This document shows positions 2,627-64,000 of a stretch of DNA of 64,000 nucleotides, in pieces. Below the pieces are notes generated by a model. That model ran no database searches and was not told the origin of the DNA. It saw only the letters and a program-made list of their open reading frames with translations. The translations under genes and the position numbers were made by a program. Within the stretch, counting starts at the first letter, position 1; each line of letters starts with the position of its first letter. The DNA lies in NCBI GenBank assembly GCA_947461105.1, contig CANHIG010000001.1, forward strand, positions 1,974 to 65,973, in the 5' to 3' direction. Origin of the DNA: Bacteroidota bacterium (GTDB lineage Bacteria; Bacteroidota; Bacteroidia; Chitinophagales; LD1).

Positions 2627-5600
2627 ATGAAAAATTTCTTACTCGCTTCAATCGTAATTTTTTCTTTTTTCACTATGCGTGCCCAAAGTACTATCACAAA
2701 TGGAAGCATGGAGACTTGGACCAATGTAGGCGCTGCAACCGAGGAGCCTCAACAATGGAATAGCAATAAAACAGGCGGTGGCAACGCTGCAACTCCCGGA
2801 CAAACTTGTTTCCGCGAAACAACAAACCCTCATAGTGGCACCTATTGTGCTAAGGTGAAAACTACATCATACATTGGCACAGTAGTAAATGGTGCACTTA
2901 CAACCGGAAAAGTAGAAGCCCCGACTTTTACCAAGGCAGATGGATATATCCGCAATATTGCAGGAGATCCAAACTATGCTATGACTTTCACTGCAAGACC
3001 CGATAGTTTTGTATTTTGGTATCGCTATACTAAAGCCGGTAGTGACTATCCAAAAGTAGAGGCAAGGCTGAATGTAGGTTATGCCTACTCTCCTGAAACT
3101 CCTAGCAATAACAATCATCCTGACAGTACACAGAACATCATAGCAAGAGCATTATGGCAAGGTGCTGCTGCTGATCAAGCAACTTGGGTAAGGATTTCGG
3201 TGCCATTTACTTATGTAGCTGGCGCAGCTGGACAAAGAACCCCTCAATATGTTTTCATAACAAGCACCAGCACCGGTGATCAAGCCGGGGGAACAAGTGG
3301 AAGCACACTTTGGCTAGATGACTTTGAAGCAATTTACAATCCAAAAATTGCTACCAATAGTATAACCCCTAGCACCTATTATGTTTCATCATCAACAGGT
3401 TCTTCTATTTCCGTTCCATTTACCTATAACGGAACATTCCAGGCTGGTAATGTCTTTACAGCTCAGCTCAGTGATGCATCAGGTTCATTTGCTACACCTG
3501 TAGCTATCGGAACAATAAGCTTATCAGCAAGCAATGTTTGGCAACAAACTGCTACAATCAGCGGAACTATTCCGGCAGGGACTGCGACAGGCACAGGCTA
3601 CAGAGTAAGAGTAGTAAGCAATAATCCGGCTGTAACAGGAACTGATAACGGTTCAAATATTACCATCAATTTAGTTTCAAACTCTATTGCACCTTCTACT
3701 ACGCAAACTATCATCACAAATGCAAACGGAACTGTACTAAATGTAACAGAAACAACAGGGTCTAATTCTAGAGAATGGAAATACACTACTACTTCGGGTA
3801 GCGGCTATGGCTCTTTTGGATCTGCACAAACTGCACTAAGCTATACTCCTAATTTTTCATCTTCGGGTACATATTATGTAGTATGTGAAACTACATACCC
3901 TGGAGGTATTTTAGTTCGTAGCAATGAAGTTCAAATAAATGTAATTGGAAATTCAATTGCACCTCCTGCACCTCAGTCCATCTCTCAGGGTTCAAATGGG
4001 ACCATACTAACTGTTACTGAATCACAAACTGCAACATCAAGAGTTTGGAAATATTCAACAACCCAAGGCGGACCTTACAATGTTTTTTCTCCTACAGAAA
4101 CAGGAACTACATACACTCCAAACTTTGCTAATAGCGGTATCTACTATGTTATCTGCGAAAGTACAATGGGAGGATTTCCTGTAAAAAGCAATGAAGTGGT
4201 AATAACTGTAAATGCTGTTAACTTATCTACTGGCGCTATTACTGGTTCACCTTTTGAATTTAGCCCAAGTGCACCAAATACAAATAATGTTACTGTACCA
4301 TATACAACAACTGGTTCCGTTTTCATAAACGGCAATATTTTTACCGCACAGCTTTCAGATGCAAGTGGTTCTTTTTCCTCTGCTACTGCTATTGGAACTG
4401 TAACTGATACAACAACAGGAACTATTTCAGCTATCATTCCATCATCTACACCGGCAGGTACTGCATACAGAATAAGAGTAGTAAGCAGTAACATTGCATT
4501 GAACGGAAGCGATAACGGAACAAATTTAGTTGTTGATCAGTTTAACAACAGCATAAGTCCTTCTACTACTCAATCTATTTTATTTAATACAAACGGAACT
4601 GTATTAAATGTGAATGCTTCTCAAAATGCTACTCATGAGTGGAAGTATAGCACTACAATCGGAGGTGCTTATCAAAGCTTTAATCCTGTGAAAACAGGAA
4701 GTAGCTATACTCCAAACTTCTCTGCCCCGGGCACTTACTATGTAGTTTGCGTTTCGAAAAATCGATACAACGATTATGTAACCAGTAATGAAGTGCAAAT
4801 CATAGTTAATAATGGAAACATACTCACCACTTTGGCTGTTTCAGGTTCTCCTTATTTAGTATCGTCAAAAGCAAATGTTCAGGTGAGCGTTACTTTCAGT
4901 TCAAATGTATACTTCAATCCGGGCAATAGTTTTGCAGTTGAATTATCTGACCAAACAGGTTCTTTTGCCTCTCCTGTATTATTGGGTACTGCATCTGGAA
5001 CCACTGTTGCTCCTCTCACAGTTCAGATTCCAAATAACAGCGTTTATGGCACTCAATACAGAATCAGAGTAGCATCTTCTGATCCTTTATTGTATGGCAC
5101 TGATAACGGAACCAACTTATCTATAATTCCTTTTGAGACATCTGTTGCTCTTCCGGATACACAGCGCTTATATTTGAATGTTGCTGGAACTACTGTTACC
5201 GTTACTGAAAGTCATCCGTCTACTCGTAAATGGCTATACTCGCAGTTCTCAGGTTTTAGCTACAATCCATTCAATCCGGCTGCTACTGGAACTTCATATG
5301 CTCCTAAAGTGAATGCATTGGGTACCTATTATATGATTTGTCGCTCTGTAAATGCTGTGAACGATACTGTTGACTCAAGAGAGATCGTATTGATTGTAAC
5401 CAGAGATACTACAGGAATTGACAACACTACTACTACGATAAAAATGTATACGCAAAGTGGCTATCTGAATATCATCCGTGATGAAGCTAAAGATGAAAAT
5501 TTTGATTTGTATAACATGAACGGACAGCTGGTTTTATCTTCAAGACTGATTGATGCTAACATTAAAATTGATATCAGCAATCTCTCGGATGGAATATATT

Positions 5601-5650
5601 TGTTTGCAATTGGTAACTCCAGAGGAAAAATTAATATATTCGGTAAATAA
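2627..5650 (+). CDS. T9SS-secreted modular repeat protein: N-terminal PCMD-like domain, interleaved repeat modules, type-A C-terminal sorting domain
   Basis: Signal peptide MKNFLLASIVIFSFFTMRAQS. Two internal repeat families are arranged A-B-B-A-B-A-B. The A consensus is FTAQLSDASGSF...YR(V/I)RVVS...DNG(S/T)N. The B consensus is SI(A/S)PSTTQ...NGT(V/I)L(N/T)V...WKYSTT...YTPNF...GTYYVVC...SNEVQI. The C-terminus (DLYNMNGQLVL...LSDGIYLFAI) is typical of a Por/T9SS CTD. Confidence 0.75.
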   Translation: MKNFLLASIVIFSFFTMRAQSTITNGSMETWTNVGAATEEPQQWNSNKTGGGNAATPGQTCFRETTNPHSGTYCAKVKTTSYIGTVVNGALTTGKVEAPTFTKADGYIRNIAGDPNYAMTFTARPDSFVFWYRYTKAGSDYPKVEARLNVGYAYSPETPSNNNHPDSTQNIIARALWQGAAADQATWVRISVPFTYVAGAAGQRTPQYVFITSTSTGDQAGGTSGSTLWLDDFEAIYNPKIATNSITPSTYYVSSSTGSSISVPFTYNGTFQAGNVFTAQLSDASGSFATPVAIGTISLSASNVWQQTATISGTIPAGTATGTGYRVRVVSNNPAVTGTDNGSNITINLVSNSIAPSTTQTIITNANGTVLNVTETTGSNSREWKYTTTSGSGYGSFGSAQTALSYTPNFSSSGTYYVVCETTYPGGILVRSNEVQINVIGNSIAPPAPQSISQGSNGTILTVTESQTATSRVWKYSTTQGGPYNVFSPTETGTTYTPNFANSGIYYVICESTMGGFPVKSNEVVITVNAVNLSTGAITGSPFEFSPSAPNTNNVTVPYTTTGSVFINGNIFTAQLSDASGSFSSATAIGTVTDTTTGTISAIIPSSTPAGTAYRIRVVSSNIALNGSDNGTNLVVDQFNNSISPSTTQSILFNTNGTVLNVNASQNATHEWKYSTTIGGAYQSFNPVKTGSSYTPNFSAPGTYYVVCVSKNRYNDYVTSNEVQIIVNNGNILTTLAVSGSPYLVSSKANVQVSVTFSSNVYFNPGNSFAVELSDQTGSFASPVLLGTASGTTVAPLTVQIPNNSVYGTQYRIRVASSDPLLYGTDNGTNLSIIPFETSVALPDTQRLYLNVAGTTVTVTESHPSTRKWLYSQFSGFSYNPFNPAATGTSYAPKVNALGTYYMICRSVNAVNDTVDSREIVLIVTRDTTGIDNTTTTIKMYTQSGYLNIIRDEAKDENFDLYNMNGQLVLSSRLIDANIKIDISNLSDGIYLFAIGNSRGKINIFGK

Positions 5651-14405: not shown

Positions 14406-17400
14406 CTATCGCAATAATGAAATACTAAATTGTTTATTTACTGCTTCATTACTCAAACTGGTTGCCGTGAAATAGCAAACATAAATGTCTGAAGGCTGAG
14501 GTATAGCCTTGAACCTGCCATCCCAACCAATTGTATTATCATTAGACTCAAAAACTTTTTCGCCCCAGCGATTATATATTCTCATTTGGAAATCCTTAAT
14601 CTGATTGGTGAAAATGATTTTGTAAACGTCATTCTTCAAATCACCATTTGGTGAGAATGCTGATGGTGCTGCAAAAACTAGTTTATCATTAATGGTATTG
14701 ATTTTTGTGCTTGCAGAAATGCTACAACCGCTGTTGTAATTTACCTTTAAAGTATATATGGCGGAATCATTACCTGAGAAAATGGGGTTTGGACAATTAG
14801 TACAACTCAAACCCAAAGCAGGTGTCCATTCATACGAATTAATGGCAGAACCAGGATATGGACCAAAAATAGAATTAAGCTGAATCGTATTGCCAGCATA
14901 AGCAGTAGTGTCAGCAGGTAAAATATCTAATGTTGCAGCAGCAGGATGAACCAGATTATAAGCATCTACAGCCGTGCAGCCGCCTGCATCTGTTACTGTA
15001 ACATCATAAGTGCCATCACAGAGACCAGTATTGATTGATGATACATTGCCATTACCCCAAACATAAGTATATGGTTGATTAGTTCCAGATACATTAGCTG
15101 TCACTATTCCGTCACAGTTATTGAAACAGGTAATAGGTTGTGTATTGCTAATTTGTACATTAAGCGTTGTTGCTTCAGTAACAGATGCTGAAGCCGTTGC
15201 AGAGCAACCATTCGCATCTATTGCTGTTACGACATATATTCCGGCAGCAATAGCAGTAGTTGTGTTTGTATTATTTCCGCCACCCCAATCAAAAGTCACG
15301 TTTGGATCGGTAGAGTTCGCAACAATATTGATTGTAGAATTATTACATGTTATTACTGCACTTTGTGGCGTAACTGAAATATTTGGAGGTGTTATATTGC
15401 TAGTAACGAAAGCAGTGACAGTGGCAGTACAAGAATTGGAAGGATCGGTAACCGTAACCGTGTAACTTCCGGCTGCGGTTGCATTGAATGAATTAGTGTT
15501 ATTTCCACCACCCCAGCTGTAAGTGACCCCGGAAGTAGAAGAACTTGCAATGATATTGACTGTAGGAATCGCACAAGTTAATGCTGTATTTATAGGGGCT
15601 ACAGTGGCGTTAGGAGCGTTTGTGTTCTGAGTAATATTCACAGAAGCAGATGCAGTACATGAATTTAGAGGATCTGTCACAGTAACAGAGTATGTCCCCG
15701 AACTGTTTGCTGTATTACTAGATGAAGTATTTCCTCCGCCCCAATTGAAAGTAGCACCTGCTGTAGATGATGAAGCAGTAAGCCCAATACTTGTAATGCT
15801 ACATGAAATTTGTCCGCTGGATGGTGAAATGCTAACAATAGGAGTAGATGCATTTGAAGAAACTTTAGCAGAATCTATTGCAGTACATAATGAAACTAAA
15901 TCTGTAATGGTTACATAATAAGTTCCGGACTGTGTAGCATTCAAAGTACTATTTGTGCTGCCATCTGACCAAAGAAATCCGGGATTTGCACTGGAAGAAG
16001 ATGCGGAAAGTAAAACTCCGGGATTCGTACAAGAAAGCGTACTGTTTTGGGGAGTAATAGAAGCAGTTGGCGGACTGCCGATTGTCACTGCCAGATTACC
16101 CGGGGCAGAGATACAATTACCCTGAGACACTGAAAGCGTTATATTTTTAGTGCCGGTCGATGGCCAGGTTACATTATAAGGTCCTGCCCCAAAACCATTA
16201 AGAACATTACCTGCATCAAAACTCCAATTATAAACAACTCCATTAGGATACGATCCTGAAATACCAATTTGGATTGGTGTGTTGCCACATGCCGGATTTG
16301 GATTTGCAGTAATTTGAGGAGCTGCAACATTTACAACATTTACTCTAAATGTATCTGTAACAGAGCATTGGTATCTGTCTTTTACAACTACACCATAAGA
16401 AGTTGATGTAGTAGGGCTAAATGATTGAGGATTTGCGGTAGCGCCCCCAGGTGACCAGCTATAGGTATAAGCAGGTGAACCAAATCTTGTAAACGCATTT
16501 ACATTAACTGATTGCCCACTACAAATAGTAGTATCTCTCGGATAGGCAGCATTTACATTGCCGCCTTGTCTTAAGTCCATAACAGGACAAAGATTAAGTT
16601 TGATAACAGAATTATATGAAGCTGGAGCCAGACAAACACCAGTAGGTTGTAAATACACATCATTCCATTTACCATTACTCATTTGTAAAATTGCTCCATC
16701 TTCACCTATAGTGGATCCTGCGCAATTTGAATTATTGGGTTCGCCTGGATTCCAATTAGTAAAATTAGATGTGTTGCCATCTTCCCATACCCATGTACCC
16801 TCAATGGCTCTATCTGTATATCCAATCCAAAAACCTCCTGATGCATAACCTGCTGCATTACTAGCTGCGAGAACGGCCGCATTCTCAGTTGCGCTGGTTA
16901 TACTTGCAAGGTTCGCACCCACCGCAGCAGCCTGATTTTGAGCAGTCTGCCATCTATTGGTAGCTGTAGTATTTACAAAATATTTGTTACAAGGGAAACC
17001 TGTAACATTAAGCGCTACCCATCCCTGAGCTCCTAATGCCGCATTGATAGCTGTAAAATCGCAGCCCGGAGGTGTAGGGCAATTTGTTGTAGTTAATGTT
17101 ACAGTAGCAGTAGCCGAACATCCATATCTATCTGTAGAAACTACAGAATAAAGATTATTCCCTAATACAGGCGCCTGAACACTTATAGCTGCTCCATTTC
17201 CAATTACTGTAGGACTTGGTGGAAAGGTCCATTGGTAAGAATAATTTGGAGAACCCAAAATAGTGGTTGCACTCAATGGAGCAGAGGCACCAAAACATAC
17301 ACTCGGAGCAGTTGCAGATACTTGAGGGCAAAGGTTAATCTTGAGTAATGATTTCCCTTGTGGTCCAAAGGAGCCTCCAAAAGGTGTAGTCTGCAAATCA

Positions 17401-17864
17401 TTCCATTTGCCACTACCCAATAATAATTGTGCTCCATCTTCTGGGATTCCAGGATACCCTGAACTATTGTTTGGTTCTCCCGGTGACCAGTTAGTATAGG
17501 TTACCGGTGTGCCGTCATTCCATTGCCATGATCCACTTTTATTATTCAGTCCTATCCATATAGTACCTGAGGTAAAACCGGCATTGTTTAAAGCGGTTAG
17601 TATTGCGGCATTCTCAGCAGCATCATTGATAGAAGCCAAATCTGCTCCAACTTGCTGAGCTTTTGTTCTGGAATCGTTCCAAAATCTGTTGGTATTGTCC
17701 ACAAAATATAACGCACATGGTTGTCCTGCAACTACCACTTCCGTATAACCAGCTCCTGTTAATGCACTTCTTATTGCAGTTAGGTTACAAGATGGAGATT
17801 GAGCTATAGATTCATTTAAGGCAAAAAATAATAGAGATAAAACAGTAAAAATTAATTTTCTCAT
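14406..17864 (-). CDS. Large adhesin-like protein: two canonical C-type lectin domains, Ig-like/SprB repeats, type-B T9SS (gliding-motility) C-terminal domain
   Basis: Has a signal peptide. Both CTLDs carry WIG, EPN and WND motifs (WIGLNN...WSPGEPNN...GKWNDL and WIGYTD...WNPGEPNN...GKWNDV). About five ~80-aa Cys-containing repeats follow (LSCTNPGV...GTYYVTITD...C). One SprB-type repeat is present (CFNNCDGI...PYTYVWGNG...CDGTYDVTVTDAGGC). The C-terminus reads FSPNGDLKNDVY...IYNRWGEKVF...GWDG. Confidence 0.8.
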   Translation of the reverse strand: MRKLIFTVLSLLFFALNESIAQSPSCNLTAIRSALTGAGYTEVVVAGQPCALYFVDNTNRFWNDSRTKAQQVGADLASINDAAENAAILTALNNAGFTSGTIWIGLNNKSGSWQWNDGTPVTYTNWSPGEPNNSSGYPGIPEDGAQLLLGSGKWNDLQTTPFGGSFGPQGKSLLKINLCPQVSATAPSVCFGASAPLSATTILGSPNYSYQWTFPPSPTVIGNGAAISVQAPVLGNNLYSVVSTDRYGCSATATVTLTTTNCPTPPGCDFTAINAALGAQGWVALNVTGFPCNKYFVNTTATNRWQTAQNQAAAVGANLASITSATENAAVLAASNAAGYASGGFWIGYTDRAIEGTWVWEDGNTSNFTNWNPGEPNNSNCAGSTIGEDGAILQMSNGKWNDVYLQPTGVCLAPASYNSVIKLNLCPVMDLRQGGNVNAAYPRDTTICSGQSVNVNAFTRFGSPAYTYSWSPGGATANPQSFSPTTSTSYGVVVKDRYQCSVTDTFRVNVVNVAAPQITANPNPACGNTPIQIGISGSYPNGVVYNWSFDAGNVLNGFGAGPYNVTWPSTGTKNITLSVSQGNCISAPGNLAVTIGSPPTASITPQNSTLSCTNPGVLLSASSSSANPGFLWSDGSTNSTLNATQSGTYYVTITDLVSLCTAIDSAKVSSNASTPIVSISPSSGQISCSITSIGLTASSSTAGATFNWGGGNTSSSNTANSSGTYSVTVTDPLNSCTASASVNITQNTNAPNATVAPINTALTCAIPTVNIIASSSTSGVTYSWGGGNNTNSFNATAAGSYTVTVTDPSNSCTATVTAFVTSNITPPNISVTPQSAVITCNNSTINIVANSTDPNVTFDWGGGNNTNTTTAIAAGIYVVTAIDANGCSATASASVTEATTLNVQISNTQPITCFNNCDGIVTANVSGTNQPYTYVWGNGNVSSINTGLCDGTYDVTVTDAGGCTAVDAYNLVHPAAATLDILPADTTAYAGNTIQLNSIFGPYPGSAINSYEWTPALGLSCTNCPNPIFSGNDSAIYTLKVNYNSGCSISASTKINTINDKLVFAAPSAFSPNGDLKNDVYKIIFTNQIKDFQMRIYNRWGEKVFESNDNTIGWDGRFKAIPQPSDIYVCYFTATSLSNEAVNKQFSISLLR

Positions 17865-18838: not shown

Positions 18839-19948
18839 TCATTGATATGCTTCCATAATTTTTTTTGAAAAAGTTTCATTCGAAAATATTTCACTTCTGG
18901 TTTTTAGCAAAGCTGTTTCCTGAGATTTATAATGGATCAGGTGAAGCATCTTCTCTGCAAACGAATTAAGATTGTCTAAATCAAAATAGTCAATAGCATC
19001 GCCACCTAACTCACGAAAGCATTCCACATCACTAGCCAACACTCTCGTCCCTGAAGTCATTGCCTCCAATATCGGAATGCCGAAACCTTCAAACTGCGAA
19101 GGATATACAAATAAATCTGCCAAACGATATATTGCAGCCAGTTCAGCCAAAGGCAGGTTTGAAAGTATCTTTATTCGTGAAGCAATATTTTTCTCTGCAA
19201 TATAATTTTCAATTGTCTTGCGCTCCATTTCATATCCACCCACCAAAACAAGATTATGGGGAACTTTTGCCATAATCTGCTCAAAGGCTTTTACTAAAAG
19301 CAAATGATTCTTTCGCGGATAAAATGAAGAAACATTTAAAATAAAATATTCATTCAATACATGCTTTAAACGGACAGTCTCCATATCTTCATTCGTGATA
19401 TTGCTTGAAAAAATGTTATCACAGCTTTGATACACTACCTCAATTTTTCGCTCATCGGCACCGATTAACTTTATTAAATCGCTTTTGGTTTGCCCACTGA
19501 TCGCAATTATCTTATCCGCAACTTTACAGGCATATCGTATTTTAGTTTCATAAATTAAACGGTCTGCAAGCGGATATTGCTTTTTCTCTTTCAGGAAAAT
19601 CAAATCATGTATGGTTACTACTTTTTTTACTCCTCTATGCTTGTCTATACCAAATGGCAACTCGTTTGACAGACCATGATAAAGATCCAGCCTGAGTGCA
19701 GCGATATCTTTTATTACATTGCGTGTTCGCCAATAAGATGGAATTAATTTATCTATTCCTCTTTCAGGCAACTCAATCTTATACTCACCATCAATTTGCT
19801 CCAGCAAATACTCTTTGATTTTAGGCGTAAAAAGATGATAGTCGTTTTCAGGAAAGTTACGCAACAACCCATTAATCAGATTTCGGGAATAAACACCCAA
19901 GCCTGTATCATTCATCAACGCTCGCTTTGCATCAAATCCGATTTTCAT
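18839..19948 (-). CDS. Glycosyltransferase family 4 (GT-B, group 1)
   Basis: The C-terminal sequence PSQFEGFGIPILEAMTSGTRVLAS contains the E-x7-E motif. It overlaps the upstream GT2 gene by 4 nt. Confidence 0.85.
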   Translation of the reverse strand: MKIGFDAKRALMNDTGLGVYSRNLINGLLRNFPENDYHLFTPKIKEYLLEQIDGEYKIELPERGIDKLIPSYWRTRNVIKDIAALRLDLYHGLSNELPFGIDKHRGVKKVVTIHDLIFLKEKKQYPLADRLIYETKIRYACKVADKIIAISGQTKSDLIKLIGADERKIEVVYQSCDNIFSSNITNEDMETVRLKHVLNEYFILNVSSFYPRKNHLLLVKAFEQIMAKVPHNLVLVGGYEMERKTIENYIAEKNIASRIKILSNLPLAELAAIYRLADLFVYPSQFEGFGIPILEAMTSGTRVLASDVECFRELGGDAIDYFDLDNLNSFAEKMLHLIHYKSQETALLKTRSEIFSNETFSKKIMEAYQ

Positions 19949-20709
19949 GATTGCTGATTTTTGGATGCATAAAGTTGTTGCAAGATTTGATATCTGAGTC
20001 TTGTACTATGTGCCGACATTTTTGCAATTGTCATACCTTCTCTGCCATCAAGCCAACCAAATTTTACGACATAGCCAACCAGAAATTTAATAGCAGGTTT
20101 CAGATAAAGGCTATAAAGCGAACTATGTTTTGAATGCTGAAAATCGCTTTGCGCAGCAAGTGCAGCATAGGATTCGGACTTGACACGAAAGGCCTCCTCA
20201 CTTTCAAAACTATAATGATAACAGAGTCCTTTAATTTTCTCGATTTTTATAGATTTATCAAAAATCAATTTTTCGTGAACAAGCCCTTCCCACTTTGCGA
20301 TTCGCCTGTCGTATATCCTTGTTTTCCAATCCGGGAACCACCCGCTGTGCTTAATAAATTTACCGCAAAAATTAGTCATTCGATTAAAGCGATACACTGC
20401 ATTTTCATTGAGGTCTTTCAGCGCATTTATTTCGTGATTCAACTCTTTGGAAAGTACTTCGTCAGCATCTATCGCCAATATAAAATCATTGGCTGCTAAA
20501 GAAGCAGCATAATTTCTGGCATCAGAAAAATCAGTCCACTCGCGTTTCTGAAAATTCACATTGTAGTTCAGACAAATTTGTTGCGTATTGTCTGTTGAGC
20601 GCGCATCCAGCACCACAATATCATCAGCTATATCATAGAGTGACTTTAAACAACGATCTATATTTCGCGCTTCATTTTTTGTGATCATAACAACAGACAA
20701 CTTTCTCAT
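19945..20709 (-). CDS. Glycosyltransferase family 2 (LPS-core type)
   Basis: The N-terminus LSVVMITKNEARNIDRCLKSL and a DxD motif (AIDADEV) are present. It overlaps both neighbouring genes by 4 nt. Confidence 0.85.
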   Translation of the reverse strand: MRKLSVVMITKNEARNIDRCLKSLYDIADDIVVLDARSTDNTQQICLNYNVNFQKREWTDFSDARNYAASLAANDFILAIDADEVLSKELNHEINALKDLNENAVYRFNRMTNFCGKFIKHSGWFPDWKTRIYDRRIAKWEGLVHEKLIFDKSIKIEKIKGLCYHYSFESEEAFRVKSESYAALAAQSDFQHSKHSSLYSLYLKPAIKFLVGYVVKFGWLDGREGMTIAKMSAHSTRLRYQILQQLYASKNQQS

Positions 20710-21983
20710 ACTTCAGCACTCATACGTTTTAAAAATAGCATGGAGAAAAGCATAAATAATGTGCCTCCAACCTGTTCCTCCAAGGTATATTCTACCATAA
20801 ACGACACAGCCATTACCAGATGAAATATCAATCCTATATAAGTTGTACGGCTTTTGAAAAGCCAAAGCGGCAGCAGCCATGCCATCAAGAAAAAAATCAT
20901 TCCAATAATACCTGTACTGCTTAATGTCCAGAGAAATTCATTATGCGGCATTTTTCTACTCTCCTCCGAAACAACTGTTGGAAAAAGTTGACGAGACATC
21001 TCTTTAGATTCTTTTAGAATATCACCAGTTCCCACGCCAAACCAAATATTTTTTTTAAATAGCTCAACGCCTGTTTTGAGCGAAGCCAGGCGCATAGCAT
21101 CTGAGTTGCCATCTATCTTGCCTATTTGCCACTGGCTATAGTCGTAGCGCATGTAGGATATTCTGTTTTGCAAAGAAGGTGCGAAAGTAAAGCTCAGCCA
21201 ACCAATAATAATGGCCGATAACGTCATGCCTAAAATCAATTTCCACTGGCGTGTTTTGAAAGAAAAATAAACGACCGTGAATGCTAAGCCAACATACAAG
21301 GAAAGCAATCCGCTACGAACGCTCAGAATATGGATTGCGATAAAAAGATATGCCCACACAAAGAGCAACCACTTTTTATAAGAGTTGATATAAAGCCAAA
21401 TTGTCGCAAAAAATGCAAAGACTAAAAGCAGGCTATATCTGATATGTGAAAACGGCACAGGCATCCTGCCTCCACTAAAAAAAGATTCATTGATTTGCTG
21501 AAAATGCTGTATGTAACGAAACAAGAAAACCCCTGAACTGATTACCATGAGCAAAACGTATACTTTCAAAATTTTGGCGATTACTTTTTCGGATATCGGG
21601 GGCAACAACCAAAAGGCTATTGGCAAAACCAGAAATGGTAGTTTGAGTAAAAGCCAGGAGAGCCACTGCCCGGTGTTTTCAGAATAAAAAAAGGAATAAA
21701 GAAATGGCAGGAAAAAAAATACAGGAATCAGCAGAACATAGCTTGAGTATGGAATCTTCGCATTTGCCGAAAAAAAATTAAAAATTCCCAATACCAATAA
21801 ACATGCTACGCCAATGGAAATAAGAGCCCGAGACCCTATAAAACCTATAAAAATCATAGCAATAAAAAGCAACAGCCCCCGTTCAAAAAACTGTTCTCTA
21901 TTTTTGTTTAAAAAAAAATCTGCGCGCGTCAAAATGCTTCTGTTATTTTTATGCAATCTAAAAAATCCTTTTGTTGGAGACAC
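20706..21983 (-). CDS. O-antigen ligase (Wzy_C)-family polytopic membrane protein
   Basis: About 10-11 hydrophobic helices plus a periplasmic-loop region with PHNEFLWTLSSTGIIG, a Wzy_C-like motif. It is clustered with the GT2 and GT4 genes. Confidence 0.7.
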   Translation of the reverse strand: MSPTKGFFRLHKNNRSILTRADFFLNKNREQFFERGLLLFIAMIFIGFIGSRALISIGVACLLVLGIFNFFSANAKIPYSSYVLLIPVFFFLPFLYSFFYSENTGQWLSWLLLKLPFLVLPIAFWLLPPISEKVIAKILKVYVLLMVISSGVFLFRYIQHFQQINESFFSGGRMPVPFSHIRYSLLLVFAFFATIWLYINSYKKWLLFVWAYLFIAIHILSVRSGLLSLYVGLAFTVVYFSFKTRQWKLILGMTLSAIIIGWLSFTFAPSLQNRISYMRYDYSQWQIGKIDGNSDAMRLASLKTGVELFKKNIWFGVGTGDILKESKEMSRQLFPTVVSEESRKMPHNEFLWTLSSTGIIGMIFFLMAWLLPLWLFKSRTTYIGLIFHLVMAVSFMVEYTLEEQVGGTLFMLFSMLFLKRMSAEV

Positions 21984-26534: not shown

Positions 26535-28343
<1,809 letters not shown>

Positions 28344-54501: not shown

Positions 54502-54975
54502 ATGCGCTTTTTACTTAATATCGGATCATACGGATTAGACAGCTCCTCAATTGATTGGGGCTATTTAGGGATTGTTGCACTGAAAGTGTTGATGGGATTT
54601 AGCATACTCATAACACTGTTTATCATTTTCCTGATATTATCCGCTATACTTATTGCCCGTTCAGTAAAATCAGGCATTGAAAACAAGTCGTTAAACTTTG
54701 CATTAAAGAAGTTCTTGCGCGGCTTCTTCTATGTTACCGCTTTCTTCTCAGTTACTTTACTGCTGATGATAGCTCTTCCGTTTTCCAAAAACTATCCGCT
54801 GTATATTGTATTGATTGGAGCAATAGGTGTTTCTTTCTTGCTTACCTTCACAATTATATCTTTGATTGGAGTGCTTATAGAGAGAGTGCTGCTAAAACTC
54901 TATGTGTTCAAAAGAATATCTGTATTACTTCACAAGCTTTTGTTACTTATTGACAGCTATATAGCCAAGAGATAA
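54502..54975 (+). CDS. Hypothetical four-helix membrane protein
   Basis: 157-aa ORF containing only hydrophobic helices. I recognised no family. Confidence 0.45.
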   Translation: MRFLLNIGSYGLDSSSIDWGYLGIVALKVLMGFSILITLFIIFLILSAILIARSVKSGIENKSLNFALKKFLRGFFYVTAFFSVTLLLMIALPFSKNYPLYIVLIGAIGVSFLLTFTIISLIGVLIERVLLKLYVFKRISVLLHKLLLLIDSYIAKR

Positions 54976-56611: not shown

Positions 56612-57052
56612 ATGCCAGTGAAAAAAAACTTAGGAGAAAATGAATGGGAATCATTCGTTCTGGTCGGAATCAGCTCATTACTAAAGGATTACAGGATTTC
56701 CTTTTTTTTGAATGAATTTCTACAGGCGGATTTTGAACAGGTAGAACCACTGCAAATTATTCCAAAAGGGAAGTCGGAAACTGTAAAATTTAAAACTTTC
56801 AGATGGAAATCTGAATATACAGGATTTGAGTTTTTCCTGTTTGATAACCATTCCGGCAAAGACATCCTACTGCCCGAAGTGAGCAAAATTAATTTTCTGG
56901 TGAAAATTTCTGGTGAATATGACCCTAAACCAATGGTCGAATTTTTGAAACAAATCCCTGAAGTATCTACCGCATCTATTTTACCTTTAGGGAAAATAAA
57001 ATCACACAAAAATCTGGAGCATAATTATACGCCAATAAAAAAAGATTCATGA
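56612..57052 (+). CDS. IPExxxVDY-family-like protein
   Basis: 146 aa. It contains LPEVSKINF at the position of the eponymous IPExxxVDY motif. It overlaps pyk by 4 nt. The family call is from memory. Confidence 0.45.
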   Translation: MPVKKNLGENEWESFVLVGISSLLKDYRISFFLNEFLQADFEQVEPLQIIPKGKSETVKFKTFRWKSEYTGFEFFLFDNHSGKDILLPEVSKINFLVKISGEYDPKPMVEFLKQIPEVSTASILPLGKIKSHKNLEHNYTPIKKDS

Positions 57053-58481: not shown

Positions 58482-59873
58482 ATGGCTGAACTTGAAATGC
58501 AAAACATGAAAAACACTATTTCAAAAATACTTCCATTTGTAATAATTGGCAGTGTGATTATCATACTATCATCGCTACATTTCGGGTGGTTAAATTCTTT
58601 TTTCTTTGATGCTGAGCATGCAGATGTGCAGGGTATCGATTATTTTTCTGCGCCAAAATCCTACTTGAATTTACTTGAAAAGAGAAGCATGTTTGACACT
58701 TGGGGGGGGGCTACTTATGGCCCACATGCTACCTGGTATCTGGCTCACCCGGCATTTAGCGTTTTTGTAGCATCCTGGTTTTCCTTTTTCTCTCCGTGGA
58801 CAAGCTATTGGCTATTTGTAATATTTTCGCTTGCAATCATGGTATTCTGCGGATGGCTCATCGCAAATACCACTAATGATTTATTCAAAAAACAGCTGAG
58901 CTTCTTTGTCTTGCTTTGTGCATTTCCTACCTACTGGCTATTGTTTGTAGGCAATATTCATGCACCATTGGTTTTAGCACTGACACTAATCATGTTGGGA
59001 ATATTTGATCTCACATATAATGAAAATATTGAAACCGGCAATGCAAAACTACTGTCAGGGTTGCTCATTTCGTTTTTTACCAAACCCATAGTTTTACTGA
59101 TGCTCCCTCTGCTACTAGTCACAAAAGAAACGCGCAAAACCACCTTCGGAAGCCTGTTAATTTATGGATTCGTTTCTATACTGTTTATAGTTATTCCCAT
59201 ACTGAATCCTGAAGGAGTTGGGCTTGGAAAAATACTCAGTATCGATTTTGAATTTGTGAAGCAGCACATGAATATTTATAAAAACAATTTTGTTTTGAAT
59301 GAATACATGAAAGATAATAGTATGCATTGGTTCAATCTTATTGCTCAATCAGACTATAAGCTAATGCATATTGATGTGTACTCATTGCCTGTATTTATTG
59401 ATACTATTGTAGGGCACGAAACCGCAGCGGGGATTTACAAAACACCGATTTACCTCAGTATGATTTTGTCACTGGGTGTTATTTTCATAGAAGATAAAAA
59501 AATAAGATTGGAAAACACCTTGTTGCTTTTGATGGCGATTCCGCTCACCTTCTTTTTAAGCTACAATACTGTTTGGGAATATCAGTTCACATCGGCACTT
59601 CCTATGGTCGCAATGCTTCCTGTGCTTAGAGAAAAGAATGTATTTTACAAAAAGTATATTCCTATACTGTTCACAATTGGCTTGTTTTTTTGCTTGCCTA
59701 GTCTGTATTTTTTAGTGCGGAAATCCGACTTCACCAATAACGATTTGACACTGATTCGGCTTGACAGAGTTTTGCCTGCACTGCTCTTATTTTTAATTAT
59801 GGTATTTATTCTAATTGGCTCAATGAAACGGCATATTGATTTGAGCATTGAAGATGCTCCTGAATTAAATTAA
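58482..59873 (+). CDS. Polytopic membrane protein, GT-C-like (DUF2029/GT87-like) candidate glycosyltransferase
   Basis: About 11-12 hydrophobic helices. The first extracytoplasmic loop is acidic (FFFDAEHADVQGIDYF), as in GT-C enzymes. It starts 3 nt after the pyk stop. The family call is weak. Confidence 0.45.
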   Translation: MAELEMQNMKNTISKILPFVIIGSVIIILSSLHFGWLNSFFFDAEHADVQGIDYFSAPKSYLNLLEKRSMFDTWGGATYGPHATWYLAHPAFSVFVASWFSFFSPWTSYWLFVIFSLAIMVFCGWLIANTTNDLFKKQLSFFVLLCAFPTYWLLFVGNIHAPLVLALTLIMLGIFDLTYNENIETGNAKLLSGLLISFFTKPIVLLMLPLLLVTKETRKTTFGSLLIYGFVSILFIVIPILNPEGVGLGKILSIDFEFVKQHMNIYKNNFVLNEYMKDNSMHWFNLIAQSDYKLMHIDVYSLPVFIDTIVGHETAAGIYKTPIYLSMILSLGVIFIEDKKIRLENTLLLLMAIPLTFFLSYNTVWEYQFTSALPMVAMLPVLREKNVFYKKYIPILFTIGLFFCLPSLYFLVRKSDFTNNDLTLIRLDRVLPALLLFLIMVFILIGSMKRHIDLSIEDAPELN

Positions 59874-59881
59874 CGCTGCAA

Positions 59882-60634
59882 TCACTTCACGGCCTTCTCT
59901 AACTCATCCATTGCCCAGGCAAGATTGTTTTTTCCTAATGTATTTTCAGGATTCTTATCTACCGCTCTTTTAAAAATTATAATCGCTTCTCTGTATTTCT
60001 TTTTGAGCATATAAGCTACACCAATATAGTTGAGTACATCTGTGTTATTAGGTTCTGTTTTGAGTATTATACTCCAGATTTCGATACTTTTATCATAGTT
60101 GCCTATTTTAAGATAATTCAAACCATAGGAAATTAAAAATCTTGTATCTCTATGACCTGCGGCTACATTTTCCTGAGTTTTTATGTTCTCAATTATTTTT
60201 TCTTTCTCATCGGTTGCCCATTTCAAATTATTTTTTGCCAATTGAAAATCTGGAGCGAGTTCCAGCGCTTTGTTGCAAGCATCAATACCGTCCTGATACT
60301 GCATCAACATCGTGTATGCACAACCTAAATCGTTATACGCAACCTCACTTTTAGGATTTAATTCTAGCGCTCGCTTGAGCGGATCAATACTTTTTCCCGG
60401 TTGTTGCAACCCGATATATCCTACAGCCAGAGCTATGAGATTGTCATAGCTAGGATTTTCCTTCACTTTGCTTTCGAGCAAAGCTATATCTGTTTGTGGT
60501 GTTGAATTTAAAGTTGACTGTTGCTTGGGTAAGTCAGGTTTCCCTGCTGACTTTACAAGAAGGTATACAATTGGAAACACCAACAATATTGTCGCTATCA
60601 AAAATAATAATACTCGCTTTTTTTGGAACATCAT
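59882..60634 (-). CDS. Membrane-anchored TPR-repeat protein
   Basis: An N-terminal TM helix is followed by about five TPR units (for example AYNDLGCAYTMLMQYQDGIDACNKALELAPD). Confidence 0.75.
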   Translation of the reverse strand: MMFQKKRVLLFLIATILLVFPIVYLLVKSAGKPDLPKQQSTLNSTPQTDIALLESKVKENPSYDNLIALAVGYIGLQQPGKSIDPLKRALELNPKSEVAYNDLGCAYTMLMQYQDGIDACNKALELAPDFQLAKNNLKWATDEKEKIIENIKTQENVAAGHRDTRFLISYGLNYLKIGNYDKSIEIWSIILKTEPNNTDVLNYIGVAYMLKKKYREAIIIFKRAVDKNPENTLGKNNLAWAMDELEKAVK

Positions 60635-60687: not shown

Positions 60688-61326
60688 TTATACTCCCTTG
60701 TCTATCATAAACTCTTTCTGATTTTCTTTATTTAATGGCATATTAAATGAGTGCTTCATCTTGCTGAGAAAAAAGCTATCTGCCTTCCCATTTCCATAGC
60801 CAAACACTTCGGCAATTTGCTCATCATCCAATATAAATCGAATTCTATTTATCTTCTCCTCACCATAACAATTTTTTCCTGCAATCTTCCCTGTGTATTT
60901 TTGATTGATGTGCTCGAACTCTGTTCCAATAAATCCAATCTCGTTCTGCCTGCACCATGTTCCTAACCAAATATTTGAGGAGGCAGTTAGTAAATATACC
61001 TGCCGACCTTTTGCCTTGTGCTGAGTAATTAGCTGAATTGCTTCCGGATAAACAAACTTAGGCAATTCATTTAAGCTAAAACTTTTGCCCTTTTCTTCCA
61101 GTTCCGACACTGAAACGCCTTTATAAAAAAAGGTAAAAAACCGCTCTTTTAAATTTTGATTGGGATAAATTTTTAGAAGATAAAGAACAATAAAAGGGGC
61201 ATTTAAAAAAATGCACAAAAGCAGTTTGAAGCTTCCGTCAGTGTATTTGATAAATTCTATGAAGGAATCTTTAAAACTAATCGTTCCATCAAAATCAAAT
61301 AGTGCAACCTCTCTTTTTTCGCTCAT
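60688..61326 (-). CDS. HAD-IB-family hydrolase (phosphatase)
   Basis: Motif I is ALFDFDGTIS (DxDxT). A cap region is present, and the protein has a late GNGKADS segment. It starts 1 nt after the upstream SDR gene. Confidence 0.75.
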   Translation of the reverse strand: MSEKREVALFDFDGTISFKDSFIEFIKYTDGSFKLLLCIFLNAPFIVLYLLKIYPNQNLKERFFTFFYKGVSVSELEEKGKSFSLNELPKFVYPEAIQLITQHKAKGRQVYLLTASSNIWLGTWCRQNEIGFIGTEFEHINQKYTGKIAGKNCYGEEKINRIRFILDDEQIAEVFGYGNGKADSFFLSKMKHSFNMPLNKENQKEFMIDKGV

Positions 61327-61327
61327 G

Positions 61328-62065
61328 CTATAGATTAGTTTTCTTGAAAATACGCTCCGGTATATTTCTTATAATAAACATAATCAATCTCCAAATGGGC
61401 AAAACGTAGACTACATCTTTCTTCGCTTTATTTGCCAGCCAAATAGCATCGGCAACTTGCGCTGCACTTGCAGTAATTGGTTTTGGCGTTTCGGGTAGCA
61501 ATTCCACCATTTTCGTTTTGATAAAGCCCGGAATGATAGTAGCAACATGTACATTTGATGCGGCAAGTCTGGCTCGTAGTCCACTCAGAAAGGCAGTTAA
61601 CCCCGCCTTTGACGAGCCATATATATAGTTACTTTTTCTGCCTCGCTCCCCTGCAACGGAGGAAACACAAATAATCGTGCCTTCCCTTTTGCTTTCCATA
61701 TCATTAGCAATGATTCCCAATATGGAGACATTGCCCACAAAATTTGAAGCGATAATCAGATTGGCTTGAGTAAAATCCGACAGCGCTTGCTCATGATTTC
61801 CTAGGTATCCAAAAACAGAAAGCACTACATTGGGTTTTACACCGAGTGATTCGTAAAAAGACTTATGACTGCTTGTCGCTAATGCGTCAAATTGAACACT
61901 AACAACATGTACATTATATCTGATTGATAAATCAGCTGCCAAATTTCTTTGATACTCATCCCCATTCCGTGTTGCTAAAATCAAATCAAATCCTTCTTTT
62001 GCGAACCTGTGCGCACAAGCTATTCCAACATCGGAGCTTGAGCCTAAAATCAAAAGTGTACTCAT
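61328..62065 (-). CDS. Short-chain dehydrogenase/reductase, DprE2-like
   Basis: Rossmann fold LILGSSSDVGIACA and the catalytic YGSSKAG (YxxxK) are present. Its operon position after a DprE1-like FAD oxidase supports the call. Confidence 0.7.
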   Translation of the reverse strand: MSTLLILGSSSDVGIACAHRFAKEGFDLILATRNGDEYQRNLAADLSIRYNVHVVSVQFDALATSSHKSFYESLGVKPNVVLSVFGYLGNHEQALSDFTQANLIIASNFVGNVSILGIIANDMESKREGTIICVSSVAGERGRKSNYIYGSSKAGLTAFLSGLRARLAASNVHVATIIPGFIKTKMVELLPETPKPITASAAQVADAIWLANKAKKDVVYVLPIWRLIMFIIRNIPERIFKKTNL

Positions 62066-62082
62066 AGTTATTTTTATGCAGT

Positions 62083-63390
62083 TTATATTTTAAGTCTCAT
62101 AGACTGTAGTGACTGGAATTTTGCAGGATGAGAAAATGCTGTAGTGTATGATTTATGGAAAGTATCGCTGTTCATCCGGGCATCTTTTGTAAGATAAAGA
62201 CGACCCGAATACGCCAAAACTATTTCATCCAATTCGTCTAAGAGTTTGAAAACCTTTTTGCTTATCTTGAAATCAAGTGCAAGCGTATAGCCTTTAATCG
62301 GAAAAGATAGTGGAGAAGCAACTGCGTCATTCTCTCCAAAGGTTTTCAAAACCGCCAGAAAAGAACCGCAACCTGAATTTGCAATTTTAGTAAGAATTTT
62401 AACCAGTCCTTCCTTGCCGTTTTCAAAAGGAATGGCAAACTGATACTGCGTAAATCCATTGGCACCATAAATTCTATTCCAGTTATTTATCGCGTCAAGT
62501 GGATAAAAATAGGGATTGTAATGAATTACATTATCTACCTCGTGTTGCATTTGCTTATGATAATACAGAAAGTTAAATGCCTTAATAGATAACTCGTTAA
62601 GCACAAAGTTGGGGAACATAAATGGCACATTGATTTGCTTGTTTGAATGAACAGCTAAAGGCTGATGAGATTGTTTTTCATTCAACTCTTTATTTGTTGC
62701 ATGCTCGCCAAGCATCAGTATAGAACGACCCAGACTATTTCCTTTTGACAAACAATCAATCCATGCCACAGAATAGGTGTAATCGCAAAACTTATCGAAA
62801 TACTCCAGCATTTCATAAATGTTTTTCGCCTTAATTGCCTTTTGCTTTATATAACTGGTTTCTATCTTTTTAAGTTTGAGATTCACAGAAATAATTACAC
62901 CTGTAAGTCCCATCCCACCAATTGTTTCAGTAAACAATGCCGGATTAGAATTTTTAGAGCAATGGATAATAGTTCCTGTTTCGTTAAGTAAGTTAAATGA
63001 TTCTATATAACGAGAAATTGAGCCCTCTGAATGATGATTCTTCCCATGAATATTTGATGCAACAGCACCTCCTATAGTTATAAACTTGGTGCCGGGTGTT
63101 ACCGGTAAAAAGAATCCTTTAGGCACAATCACTTCCAGAATATCTCTTAGCAACACTCCAGCTTCACATGATATCATGCCATTTTCAGTATCAAATGACA
63201 AGAATTTATTTAACTCCAATGTAGAGAAAATCGTTTTTTGGAGGGAGCTGTCGCCATAGCATCTGCCATTTCCACGCGGAATAATTACAAGATTTTCTTT
63301 GACAAATTCCGCAATCTTCGCATAGTGACTAAAGGCAATTTGATTTGCATCTATTCGAGGAAAAACGCCCCAGTTAAATACTTTTCCCAT
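62083..63390 (-). CDS. FAD-binding (PCMH-type) oxidoreductase, DprE1-like
   Basis: The FAD_binding_4 pattern IIPRGNGRCYGDSSL...ITIGGAVASNIHGKNHH is present. The length and C-terminal layout resemble decaprenylphospho-ribose 2'-oxidase. Confidence 0.7.
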   Translation of the reverse strand: MGKVFNWGVFPRIDANQIAFSHYAKIAEFVKENLVIIPRGNGRCYGDSSLQKTIFSTLELNKFLSFDTENGMISCEAGVLLRDILEVIVPKGFFLPVTPGTKFITIGGAVASNIHGKNHHSEGSISRYIESFNLLNETGTIIHCSKNSNPALFTETIGGMGLTGVIISVNLKLKKIETSYIKQKAIKAKNIYEMLEYFDKFCDYTYSVAWIDCLSKGNSLGRSILMLGEHATNKELNEKQSHQPLAVHSNKQINVPFMFPNFVLNELSIKAFNFLYYHKQMQHEVDNVIHYNPYFYPLDAINNWNRIYGANGFTQYQFAIPFENGKEGLVKILTKIANSGCGSFLAVLKTFGENDAVASPLSFPIKGYTLALDFKISKKVFKLLDELDEIVLAYSGRLYLTKDARMNSDTFHKSYTTAFSHPAKFQSLQSMRLKI

Positions 63391-64000
63391 AAAGAATAAA
63401 TAAGAAAGTTAGCCCCCAAAGTAATAAAGTAATTTGCAGAAATCTGTCTCTCCACAATACATCTGTAGGAGAGCCGGAGTCTTTATCCACCACAGTGATT
63501 TGTATATAGCGCATGATGCCAATAAAAACAAAAAGTGAAGTGAAATATAGCTTGTCAGAACCTATTCGTGCAATCACTTCCGTAGAAATAGAATATAAAA
63601 CATAAGAAATCAAAGTGATGGAAAACGAAATACTCTTTGCTATATCCAAAAAAGCTATTGAATATCCTGATAATGACTTCCTGATACTGTTTTTCTGAAC
63701 ATCAATGACTAAATCGTCTCTTCGTTTAGCAAAAGCCATAGATATCGTAAGCAGAAAAACCATAATTATCATCCAGTTTGAAACAAAAACTTGCGCCTCA
63801 ACACCTCCTGGCAACACTCGCAATACAAACCCAATGCTAATGCAAGAAACATCCACAATAGAAATGTTTTTCAATAGGAATGAGTATAAAATATTCAGTG
63901 CAAAATAGCAGAGCAGATAAATAGCGGAATACTTCAACAGAAAAAGAGAAGCAAGAAATAATAATGACATCAAAACGAATAGTGCCCATGCTAATTTCAC
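63374..64000 (-). CDS. UbiA-family prenyltransferase, decaprenyl-phosphate phosphoribosyltransferase-like; the 5' end lies outside the window
   Basis: Polytopic protein. The sequence NILYSFLLKNISIVDVSCISIGFVLRVLPGG resembles the second Asp-rich region of DPPR-synthase-type UbiA proteins. It overlaps the next gene by 17 nt. Confidence 0.65.
   Translation of the reverse strand: MKLAWALFVLMSLLFLASLFLLKYSAIYLLCYFALNILYSFLLKNISIVDVSCISIGFVLRVLPGGVEAQVFVSNWMIIMVFLLTISMAFAKRRDDLVIDVQKNSIRKSLSGYSIAFLDIAKSISFSITLISYVLYSISTEVIARIGSDKLYFTSLFVFIGIMRYIQITVVDKDSGSPTDVLWRDRFLQITLLLWGLTFLFILYGKSI

Follow-up and report, generated by a model that had tools for sequence, protein, structure and literature searches.

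Four tightly packed, co-directional genes at one end of a 64,000-nt stretch of Bacteroidota DNA (contig CANHIG010000001.1, positions 1,974 to 65,973; hereafter the window) probably form an operon for the synthesis of a polyprenyl-phosphate-linked D-arabinofuranose (D-Araf) donor for use by a glycosyltransferase of the GT-C fold. In the direction of transcription they encode a UbiA-family protein, a DprE1-like FAD oxidase, a DprE2-like short-chain dehydrogenase/reductase (SDR) and a HAD-IB hydrolase. Judged by sequence, the closest characterised or solved relatives of the first three are, by large margins, Rv3806c, DprE1 and DprE2, the core enzymes of the mycobacterial decaprenyl-phospho-arabinofuranose (DPA) pathway. 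The same gene order was found again in dozens of genomes; the arrangement is therefore not due to chance, and the system, uncharacterised and very widespread, belongs to a kind of pathway known from other bacteria. The host belongs to the Bacteroidota: the window encodes C-terminal sorting domains of the type IX secretion system (T9SS; Por_Secre_tail, CHU_C/SprB), and the named homologs come from Bacteroidia metagenome-assembled genomes (MAGs).

In the pathway that we propose, synthesis would take place on the cytoplasmic face of the inner membrane, on a lipid that is probably undecaprenyl phosphate. The UbiA protein would join phosphoribosyl pyrophosphate (PRPP) to the polyprenyl phosphate, giving polyprenyl-phospho-ribose-5-phosphate, and the HAD-IB hydrolase would take off the 5-phosphate. 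The DprE1-like flavoenzyme, using FAD, would then oxidise C2' to a 2'-keto intermediate, and a stereo-inverting reduction by the DprE2-like SDR would yield polyprenyl-phospho-D-Araf. After a flippase had carried this donor across the membrane, a GT-C enzyme would arabinosylate an envelope glycan or protein; the most plausible enzyme for this step is the GT87-like protein encoded next to the cassette, acting with a membrane-anchored periplasmic protein of tetratricopeptide repeats (TPR). All three soluble cassette enzymes lack a signal sequence on inspection, which fits cytoplasmic synthesis.

The four cassette genes

Within the cassette (Table 1), the UbiA and DprE1-like genes overlap by 17 nt (63374-63390), 17 nt (62066-62082) separate the DprE1-like from the DprE2-like gene, and a single nucleotide (61327) lies between the latter and the HAD gene; Pfam and NCBIfam assign the four to UbiA, FAD_binding_4/DprE1, adh_short/DprE2 and HAD-IB. 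A first-pass annotation, made from the letters of the window, had described this tight minus-strand packing, had quoted the motifs GNGRCYGD, YGSSKAG and DFDGT, and had pointed to two neighbours, an anchored TPR protein and a polytopic protein; the open reading frame (ORF) coordinates agree with the packing, each motif is present in its protein, and the neighbours are as claimed. The window end cuts the UbiA gene, and the GTG start listed for the truncated ORF is an artefact of that end. The complete gene was read from a 116-kb ENA metagenome scaffold (L001), which shows 3 mismatches against the window across 11,918 bp: it spans L001:9139-10017 (window-equivalent end 64252), encodes 292 aa and starts 58 nt past a GH31 alpha-glucosidase gene. 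UbiA is the first gene of the operon; farther upstream in L001 lie GH31, PaaD and PaaA genes, none of the pathway. The GH31 alpha-glucosidase was considered as a member of the unit and rejected, since a SIMPL gene takes its place in a second lineage that carries the cassette (L087, below). An Rfam scan of the whole 64-kb window gave no match, and scans for sigma-70 promoters and intrinsic terminators around the operon gave no more than the shuffle expectation, Bacteroidota promoters lying outside the coverage of the models.

Table 1. Positions of the cassette genes and of the two genes next to them, in window coordinates
Feature	Position	Strand	Product and remarks
UbiA-family gene	63374-64000	minus	208 aa (codons), the 3' part; cut by window end
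DprE1-like FAD oxidase gene	62083-63390	minus	435 aa
DprE2-like SDR gene	61328-62065	minus	245 aa
HAD-IB hydrolase gene	60688-61326	minus	212 aa; stand-alone
TPR protein gene	59882-60634	minus	250 aa; 53 nt downstream of HAD gene
GT87-like GT-C candidate gene	58482-59873	plus	463 aa, about 10 transmembrane segments

The full-length UbiA protein scored 211, 199 and 146 bits on three decaprenyl-phosphate phosphoribosyltransferase (DPPRS) models and no more than 60 bits on MenA-, UbiA- and CyoE-type models; the fragment within the window gave 25 bits on Pfam UbiA, under the cut-off. Among solved proteins it matched Rv3806c (8j8j) at 127 bits (E 1e-35, 31% identity) and a 4-hydroxybenzoate prenyltransferase at 29 bits. 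Its NDxxDxxxD motif is intact (NDILDIDED, residues 59-67), and its KRRDD aligns with KRYAE of Mycobacterium tuberculosis, the RxxE-type motif of loop IV, with a conservative change of E to D. The NDxxDxxxD residues, in cytoplasmic loop II, are needed for activity both in Rv3806c and in ORF15 of Citrobacter youngae, a UbiA-type polyprenyl-phosphoribose synthase fused to a HAD-type phosphoribose phosphatase (PRP) (Kelly, Whitfield et al. PNAS 2024, PMC11127046). The UbiA gene is accordingly listed here as a candidate for an Rv3806c-like polyprenyl-phosphate 5-phosphoribosyltransferase (PPPRS), its most likely function.

On the DprE1 model NF053785 the FAD protein scored 400 bits, and the next FAD-oxidase family came about 340 bits lower, at 57. 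It matched the DprE1 structures of M. smegmatis and M. tuberculosis at about 257-260 bits (36% identity) and other solved flavoenzymes at 41 bits or less. GNGRCYGD occupies residues 40-47, and in an alignment to 4aut the protein keeps the equivalents of M. tuberculosis Y60, G117, H132, K134, Q334, Q336 and K418, of which we take H132, K134, Q334, Q336 and K418 to be active-site residues of DprE1. Three positions are substituted relative to the M. tuberculosis enzyme: Y314 to F, N385 to T and C387 to A. Cys387 of the M. tuberculosis enzyme is the covalent attachment site of benzothiazinones and is presumably dispensable for catalysis; the Ala at this position (Ala371 here) is invariant across a 15-sequence alignment. 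Homologs are named 'FAD-binding oxidoreductase' by NCBI and, in several cases, 'decaprenylphospho-beta-D-ribofuranose 2-oxidase' by JGI. The predicted product is most likely a DprE1-like polyprenyl-phospho-ribofuranose 2'-oxidase.

The best solved relative of the SDR is DprE2 (21gq_C, from a DprE1-DprE2 complex; 9e-34, 34% identity), and the protein scored 293 bits on NF005489 'SDR family oxidoreductase', over the cut-off of 267. It carries GSSSDVG at residue 8, SSVAG at 135 and YGSSK at 149 (YGSSKAG 149-155), so that both motif classes are kept, the Gly-rich dinucleotide-binding GxxSxxG and the catalytic S...YxxxK; a DprE2-like 2'-keto reductase is the most likely prediction. The first-pass annotation had read the three core proteins as prenyl-phosphate phosphoribosyltransferase-like, DprE1-like and DprE2-like, and the comparisons above support that reading for each.

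The HAD protein matched PF12710 (6e-24) and reached 96.7 bits on TIGR01490 (cut-off 98.3). Its DFDGT nucleophile motif (residues 11-15) and its E/K motif are invariant in 20 homologs; all its homologs, like the protein itself, stand alone, at about 200 aa, and come from organisms similar to the cassette carriers. A single-sequence search of PDB sequences gave no match, and a profile search found only an uncharacterised HAD-IB protein and phosphoserine phosphatases. HAD is the fourth cassette gene in about 45 loci, and in a Chlorobiaceae locus (L082:8476-9939) a HAD-UbiA fusion is followed by DprE1 and DprE2, with the separate HAD gene absent. The fusion scores 648 bits on NF006088, of which it is a full member, and the profile of the window HAD family aligns to its HAD domain with an hhalign probability of 91% (E 1e-6). 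This is evidence of the Rosetta-stone type that the stand-alone HAD acts on the product of UbiA, making it a candidate polyprenyl-phospho-ribose-5-phosphate 5-phosphatase. By sequence and gene context it has the marks of the PRP class, an Asp nucleophile and a linkage to PPPRS, the tie to the class running through the L082 fusion, whose HAD domain is of the same HAD-IB (TIGR01490-like) class. The suggestion of the first-pass annotation that it could stand in for the PAP2-type 5-phosphatase of mycobacteria is reasonable and sound, and not new: the concept was published by Kelly et al. (PMC11127046), who found experimentally that the fused HAD domain dephosphorylates polyprenyl-phospho-ribose-5-phosphate.

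Distribution and variants of the cassette

Gene order was counted in 80 loci sampled from species-representative genomes, mostly of Bacteroidota carriers. The order UbiA-DprE1-DprE2-HAD is present in about 45 of them, in different genera, the carriers including Chryseobacterium, Epilithonimonas, Empedobacter, Chitinophaga, Flavitalea, Paraflavitalea, Proteiniphilum, Sandaracinomonas and many MAGs. In a wider pattern search of species-representative genomes, at least 593 of 600 matches, among those listed, encode a relative. More than 8000 proteins of the DprE1-like family were scored, at identities of 55-74%, from Bacteroidota and beyond.

The large polytopic proteins that adjoin the cassette are different and mutually unrelated across lineages. 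(i) In 25 Chitinophagaceae/Cytophagales loci a membrane protein of about 550 aa, with a weak PMT_2 match, is encoded divergently from UbiA. (ii) Two loci (L088:8124-12512 and L089:8139-12505) have UbiA, DprE1, HAD and, directly after HAD, a PMT_2-like GT-C gene on one strand, with no DprE2 homolog within about 9 kb of the cassette (phmmer E<=1e-3); the reductase gene may lie at another site in these genomes, or else the pathway has a different end. The genes after the L089 cassette encode ALGX, MBOAT, Wzz and Wzy_C proteins. (iii) In L092:1-15284 the cassette forms part of a classical polysaccharide locus (AsnB-like, three GT4, GT47/exostosin-like, methyltransferase, GT2), and a 551-aa protein with about 13 transmembrane segments and no family sits between DprE1 and DprE2. 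A relationship between the GT-C family of the window and the 550-aa protein of Chitinophagaceae/Cytophagales was considered and rejected (hhalign probability 0.1%); hidden Markov models of these two families did not match the other cassette-linked membrane proteins, most of which lack a family in Pfam and NCBIfam. Such a pairing, in which the donor cassette is conserved and the membrane transferase varies, characterises the modular systems in the literature, compared below.

The neighbouring GT-C and TPR genes and competing readings

The GT-C candidate gene converges on the TPR gene, with 8 nt between them. Its product scored 20.3 bits (E 5e-4) on Pfam GT87 (PF09594), below the cut-off of 25, and its profile found no match among PDB sequences. 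In a Foldseek search of the PDB with an AlphaFold2 model (pLDDT 77.6, pTM 0.84), the best match was PimE (9dm5/9dm7, GT87; TM 0.54-0.67), followed by PIG-M, PglB, AglB, Pmt4, ArnT and EmbC, the top matches being exclusively GT-C enzymes. Twenty homologs all share Asp53 (GIDYF), a residue of the first extracytoplasmic loop. The family has about 300 proteins, all from uncultured Bacteroidia, mostly unannotated and some with a PF09594 match. On its modelled structure, this protein is a candidate GT87-like glycosyltransferase of the GT-C fold. The TPR protein (TPR_1 7e-22, TPR_2 2e-20) has a hydrophobic N-terminal anchor segment on inspection of the sequence; it may be an accessory of the GT-C protein or bind the acceptor for it.

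Both had been put forward as partners of the cassette in the first-pass annotation, a proposal that gains support from the fold prediction and from a second lineage. In three loci (L087, L090 and L091), where DprE1 is 72-74% identical to that of the window, the block UbiA-DprE1-DprE2-HAD-TPR-(GT87-like, convergent) is intact, with TPR orthologs at the same position (321 bits). The flanks of this six-gene block are GH31 and pyruvate kinase in the window, and SIMPL and MlaD/amidase in the other three loci. That the block is kept while both flanks differ supports a functional link of the GT-C and TPR genes with the cassette.

Several points weigh against reading the locus as a D-Araf donor operon coupled to its adjacent GT-C. 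(i) Scores fall below the NCBIfam equivalog cut-offs for DprE1 (400 of 500 bits), for DprE2 (NF053786, 193 of 250) and for UbiA (NF008977, 211 of 234; NF008978, 199 of 207), so that by this sequence measure strict orthology is not established; the cassette proteins are divergent relatives and are not named automatically by the annotation pipeline. (ii) Motif IV of the HAD protein (residues 178-183) is GNGKAD, not GDxxxD. The variable position is Asn or His in the closest relatives, and most family members have GDSxGD. We considered a defective enzyme on this account and rejected it, since the PRP-type HAD domain fused to PPPRS in L082 carries the same GN..AD pattern. (iii) Pfam finds no flippase of the GtrA, SMR or MATE families among the predicted polytopic proteins of the window (COX15, MFS, DUF1304, Wzy_C, FtsX, ABC, TauE, TerC and one family-less 157-aa ORF), nor was a MATE/SMR/GtrA-like gene found adjoining the cassette in L087-L092. 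(iv) The searchable literature holds no D-Araf glycan from Bacteroidota, and the literature searched gave nothing relevant on DprE1/DprE2 or decaprenylphosphoryl sugars in Bacteroidetes, Flavobacterium or Chryseobacterium. (v) GT-C homologs 56-69% identical to that of the window lie away from the cassette in three other genomes (L084, L085 and L086), so that the link of this GT-C to Araf is confined to two related lineages.

The last point bears on an alternative that we judge possible though rather unlikely: the cassette makes lipid-linked Araf, the GT87-like and TPR proteins are unrelated to it (for example, users of polyprenyl-phospho-mannose), and the true arabinofuranosyltransferase is encoded elsewhere in the genome. 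The nearest fold, PimE, is that of a mannosyltransferase, and the window GT-C gene is on the strand opposite to the cassette, where pyruvate kinase and a 146-aa ORF are its close neighbours (2-nt gap, 4-nt overlap); in L086 the GT-C and TPR genes stand without the cassette. Chryseobacterium-type loci have no large membrane protein near the cassette, so a distant transferase is common. Against such independence speak the six-gene block described above and the recurrent position of the cassette next to some polytopic membrane protein.

A very unlikely reading is that the donor carries a different pentofuranose, either ribofuranose (Ribf), with the oxidase and reductase serving otherwise, or a 2-keto or modified pentose. 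The same PPPRS/PRP entry can feed Ribf or xylofuranose (Xylf), according to the auxiliary epimerase (Kelly et al. 2024, PMC11127046), the loci without a nearby DprE2 homolog (L088 and L089) indicate plasticity of the pathway, and Y314F, N385T and C387A are differences from M. tuberculosis DprE1 that this reading could accommodate. In the window, however, DprE1- and DprE2-like genes are both present and tightly coupled, and we infer from DprE1/E2 chemistry that oxidation and then reduction at C2' of ribofuranose is non-futile only if it gives arabinofuranose. Moreover, DprE1/E2 homologs accompany Araf-containing glycans, while a different SDR (ORF13) tracks Xylf (Kelly et al., PMC11127046). Hardly credible is a set of non-glycan genes, an aromatic or quinone prenyltransferase with unrelated redox and phosphatase enzymes such as an alditol or lactone oxidase: the Pfam families (UbiA, at 25 bits on the fragment, FAD_binding_4, adh_short, HAD) and NCBI homolog names ('FAD-binding oxidoreductase', 'HAD-IB family hydrolase') are only generic, but the scores separate clearly (DPPRS models 146-211 vs at most 60 bits; DprE1 400 vs at most 57 for lactone, alditol and glycolate oxidases), the four genes are kept together as one cassette, and a HAD-UbiA fusion stands beside DprE1/E2.

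The best-known source of D-arabinofuranose is the cell wall of mycobacteria, which is an important target of drugs. If the D-Araf donor reading is true, surface glycans across Bacteroidota would commonly contain this sugar, and the cassette occurs, among others, in Riemerella, Chryseobacterium and Empedobacter, pathogens of animals and humans; benzothiazinones would not be expected to hit the carriers covalently, because the DprE1-like enzyme is without the target Cys. For glycobiologists it gives a concrete sugar to seek, a portable four-gene donor cassette and orphan GT-C candidates that could be matched to their acceptors. Gut Bacteroidetes possess D-arabinan-degrading enzymes (PMC10115798).

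Further observations concern the relatives of the two neighbours and the rest of the window. In L086:8001-9831 the GT-C homolog is convergent with a 148-aa TPR homolog, the cassette not being nearby, and a 671-aa TPR protein is encoded next; the pair may constitute a module independent of the cassette. In a Bacteroidia MAG (L084:8001-17413) the GT-C homolog, beside tatC, heads an island of further polytopic proteins, three with PMT_2 matches and others without family. The 146-aa ORF in the transcription unit of the window GT-C gene (56612-57052, plus strand) has no Pfam family, and its 4-nt overlap is with the start of pyruvate kinase; the 157-aa ORF (54502-54975, plus strand), likewise without Pfam family, has three or four hydrophobic segments. 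Two large secreted proteins with T9SS C-terminal sorting domains, one with PCMD and Por_Secre_tail and the other with C-type lectin, SprB repeat and CHU_C, are encoded at 2627-5650 (plus) and 14406-17864 (minus), and such T9SS-sorted proteins are possible glycoprotein acceptors. At a distance of about 40 kb from the cassette, three consecutive genes (18839-21983, minus strand) for a GT4 glycosyltransferase, a GT2 glycosyltransferase and a Wzy_C/O-antigen-ligase-like protein of 12 transmembrane segments make up a small module for surface polysaccharide, which could provide an acceptor glycan. At 26535-28343 (minus strand) GC content spikes to 0.48, vs about 0.38, over the gene of a 602-aa protein with collagen triple-helix repeats and a glycine-rich domain; ORFs overlapping it on the opposite strand are probably artefacts of repeat composition.

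Comparison with known arabinosylation systems

Like the mycobacterial DPA pathway (Rv3806c, Rv3807c, DprE1 Rv3790 and DprE2 Rv3791), the window has the same three core families, at 31%, 36% and 34% identity, and the predicted chemistry would run alike, from PRPP through lipid-phospho-ribose-5-phosphate and lipid-phospho-ribose to lipid-phospho-Araf, with GT-C enzymes as users. It differs in having a HAD-IB phosphatase in place of the Rv3807c type, its four genes in one tight operon, a lipid that is presumably undecaprenyl and not decaprenyl phosphate, and Ala in place of Cys387. No Emb/Aft-type transferase or homolog of the GtrA-like Rv3789 is near the cassette, and the host is a diderm member of the Bacteroidota without arabinogalactan.

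Two further precedents that the first-pass annotation had named, arabinosylation of Pseudomonas pilin and of the Azorhizobium Nod factor, were both confirmed in published papers. For pilin D-Araf, P. aeruginosa Pa5196/PA7 uses PsPA7_6245-6251 and TfpW, with PsPA7_6246/6248/6249 for the donor; the host is again Gram-negative, and the lipid-linked D-Araf comes from homologs of DPPRS, DprE1 and DprE2. The window has no nearby pilin gene or homolog of the GtrA-like 6247, and the phosphatase families differ. TfpW is a GT-C transferase with a periplasmic TPR domain in one 646-aa protein, and the window has a GT-C candidate and a predicted periplasmic TPR protein as two separate proteins. The pairing of GT-C with TPR, echoing TfpW, raises the possibility of protein O-arabinosylation. 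By analogy, the two could constitute a 'split TfpW', acting together as an O-arabinofuranosyltransferase that attaches cassette-supplied D-Araf to proteins secreted by Bacteroidota or displayed on their surface, the likely targets then being T9SS cargo or adhesins. We consider this unlikely; if true, both the protein-glycosylation system and the sugar would be first reports for Bacteroidota, as far as the literature searched goes.

The noeC(N)HOP operon of Azorhizobium caulinodans and Rhizobium sp. IRBG74 comprises the DPA orthologs noeC, noeH and noeO, the transferase gene noeP and the proposed phosphatase gene noeN. As judged from described gene content, the likeness is that of a DPA-pathway operon with a dedicated transferase; the noe acceptor is a lipo-chitooligosaccharide, and the window is without nod genes.

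A further comparison is with the 'three-component' pentofuranose systems of Kelly et al. (PMC11127046), defined as a synthase, a flippase and a GT-C transferase; neither the paper nor its supplement includes a Bacteroidota example. The HAD enzyme is a separate gene in the window, whereas it is fused in Citrobacter (and in L082), Citrobacter has a MATE flippase whereas no MATE/SMR gene adjoins the window cassette, and the GT-C candidate is GT87-like here vs GT136 in Citrobacter. Shared, on the predicted functions, are the UbiA-type PPPRS, the HAD-type phosphatase, the optional DprE1/E2-type epimerisation and the GT-C enzyme, which is variable beside a conserved cassette. This combination of PPPRS, HAD phosphatase, DprE1/E2 and GT-C is an already published framework, to which the present locus brings no new mechanism but a wider phylogenetic range.

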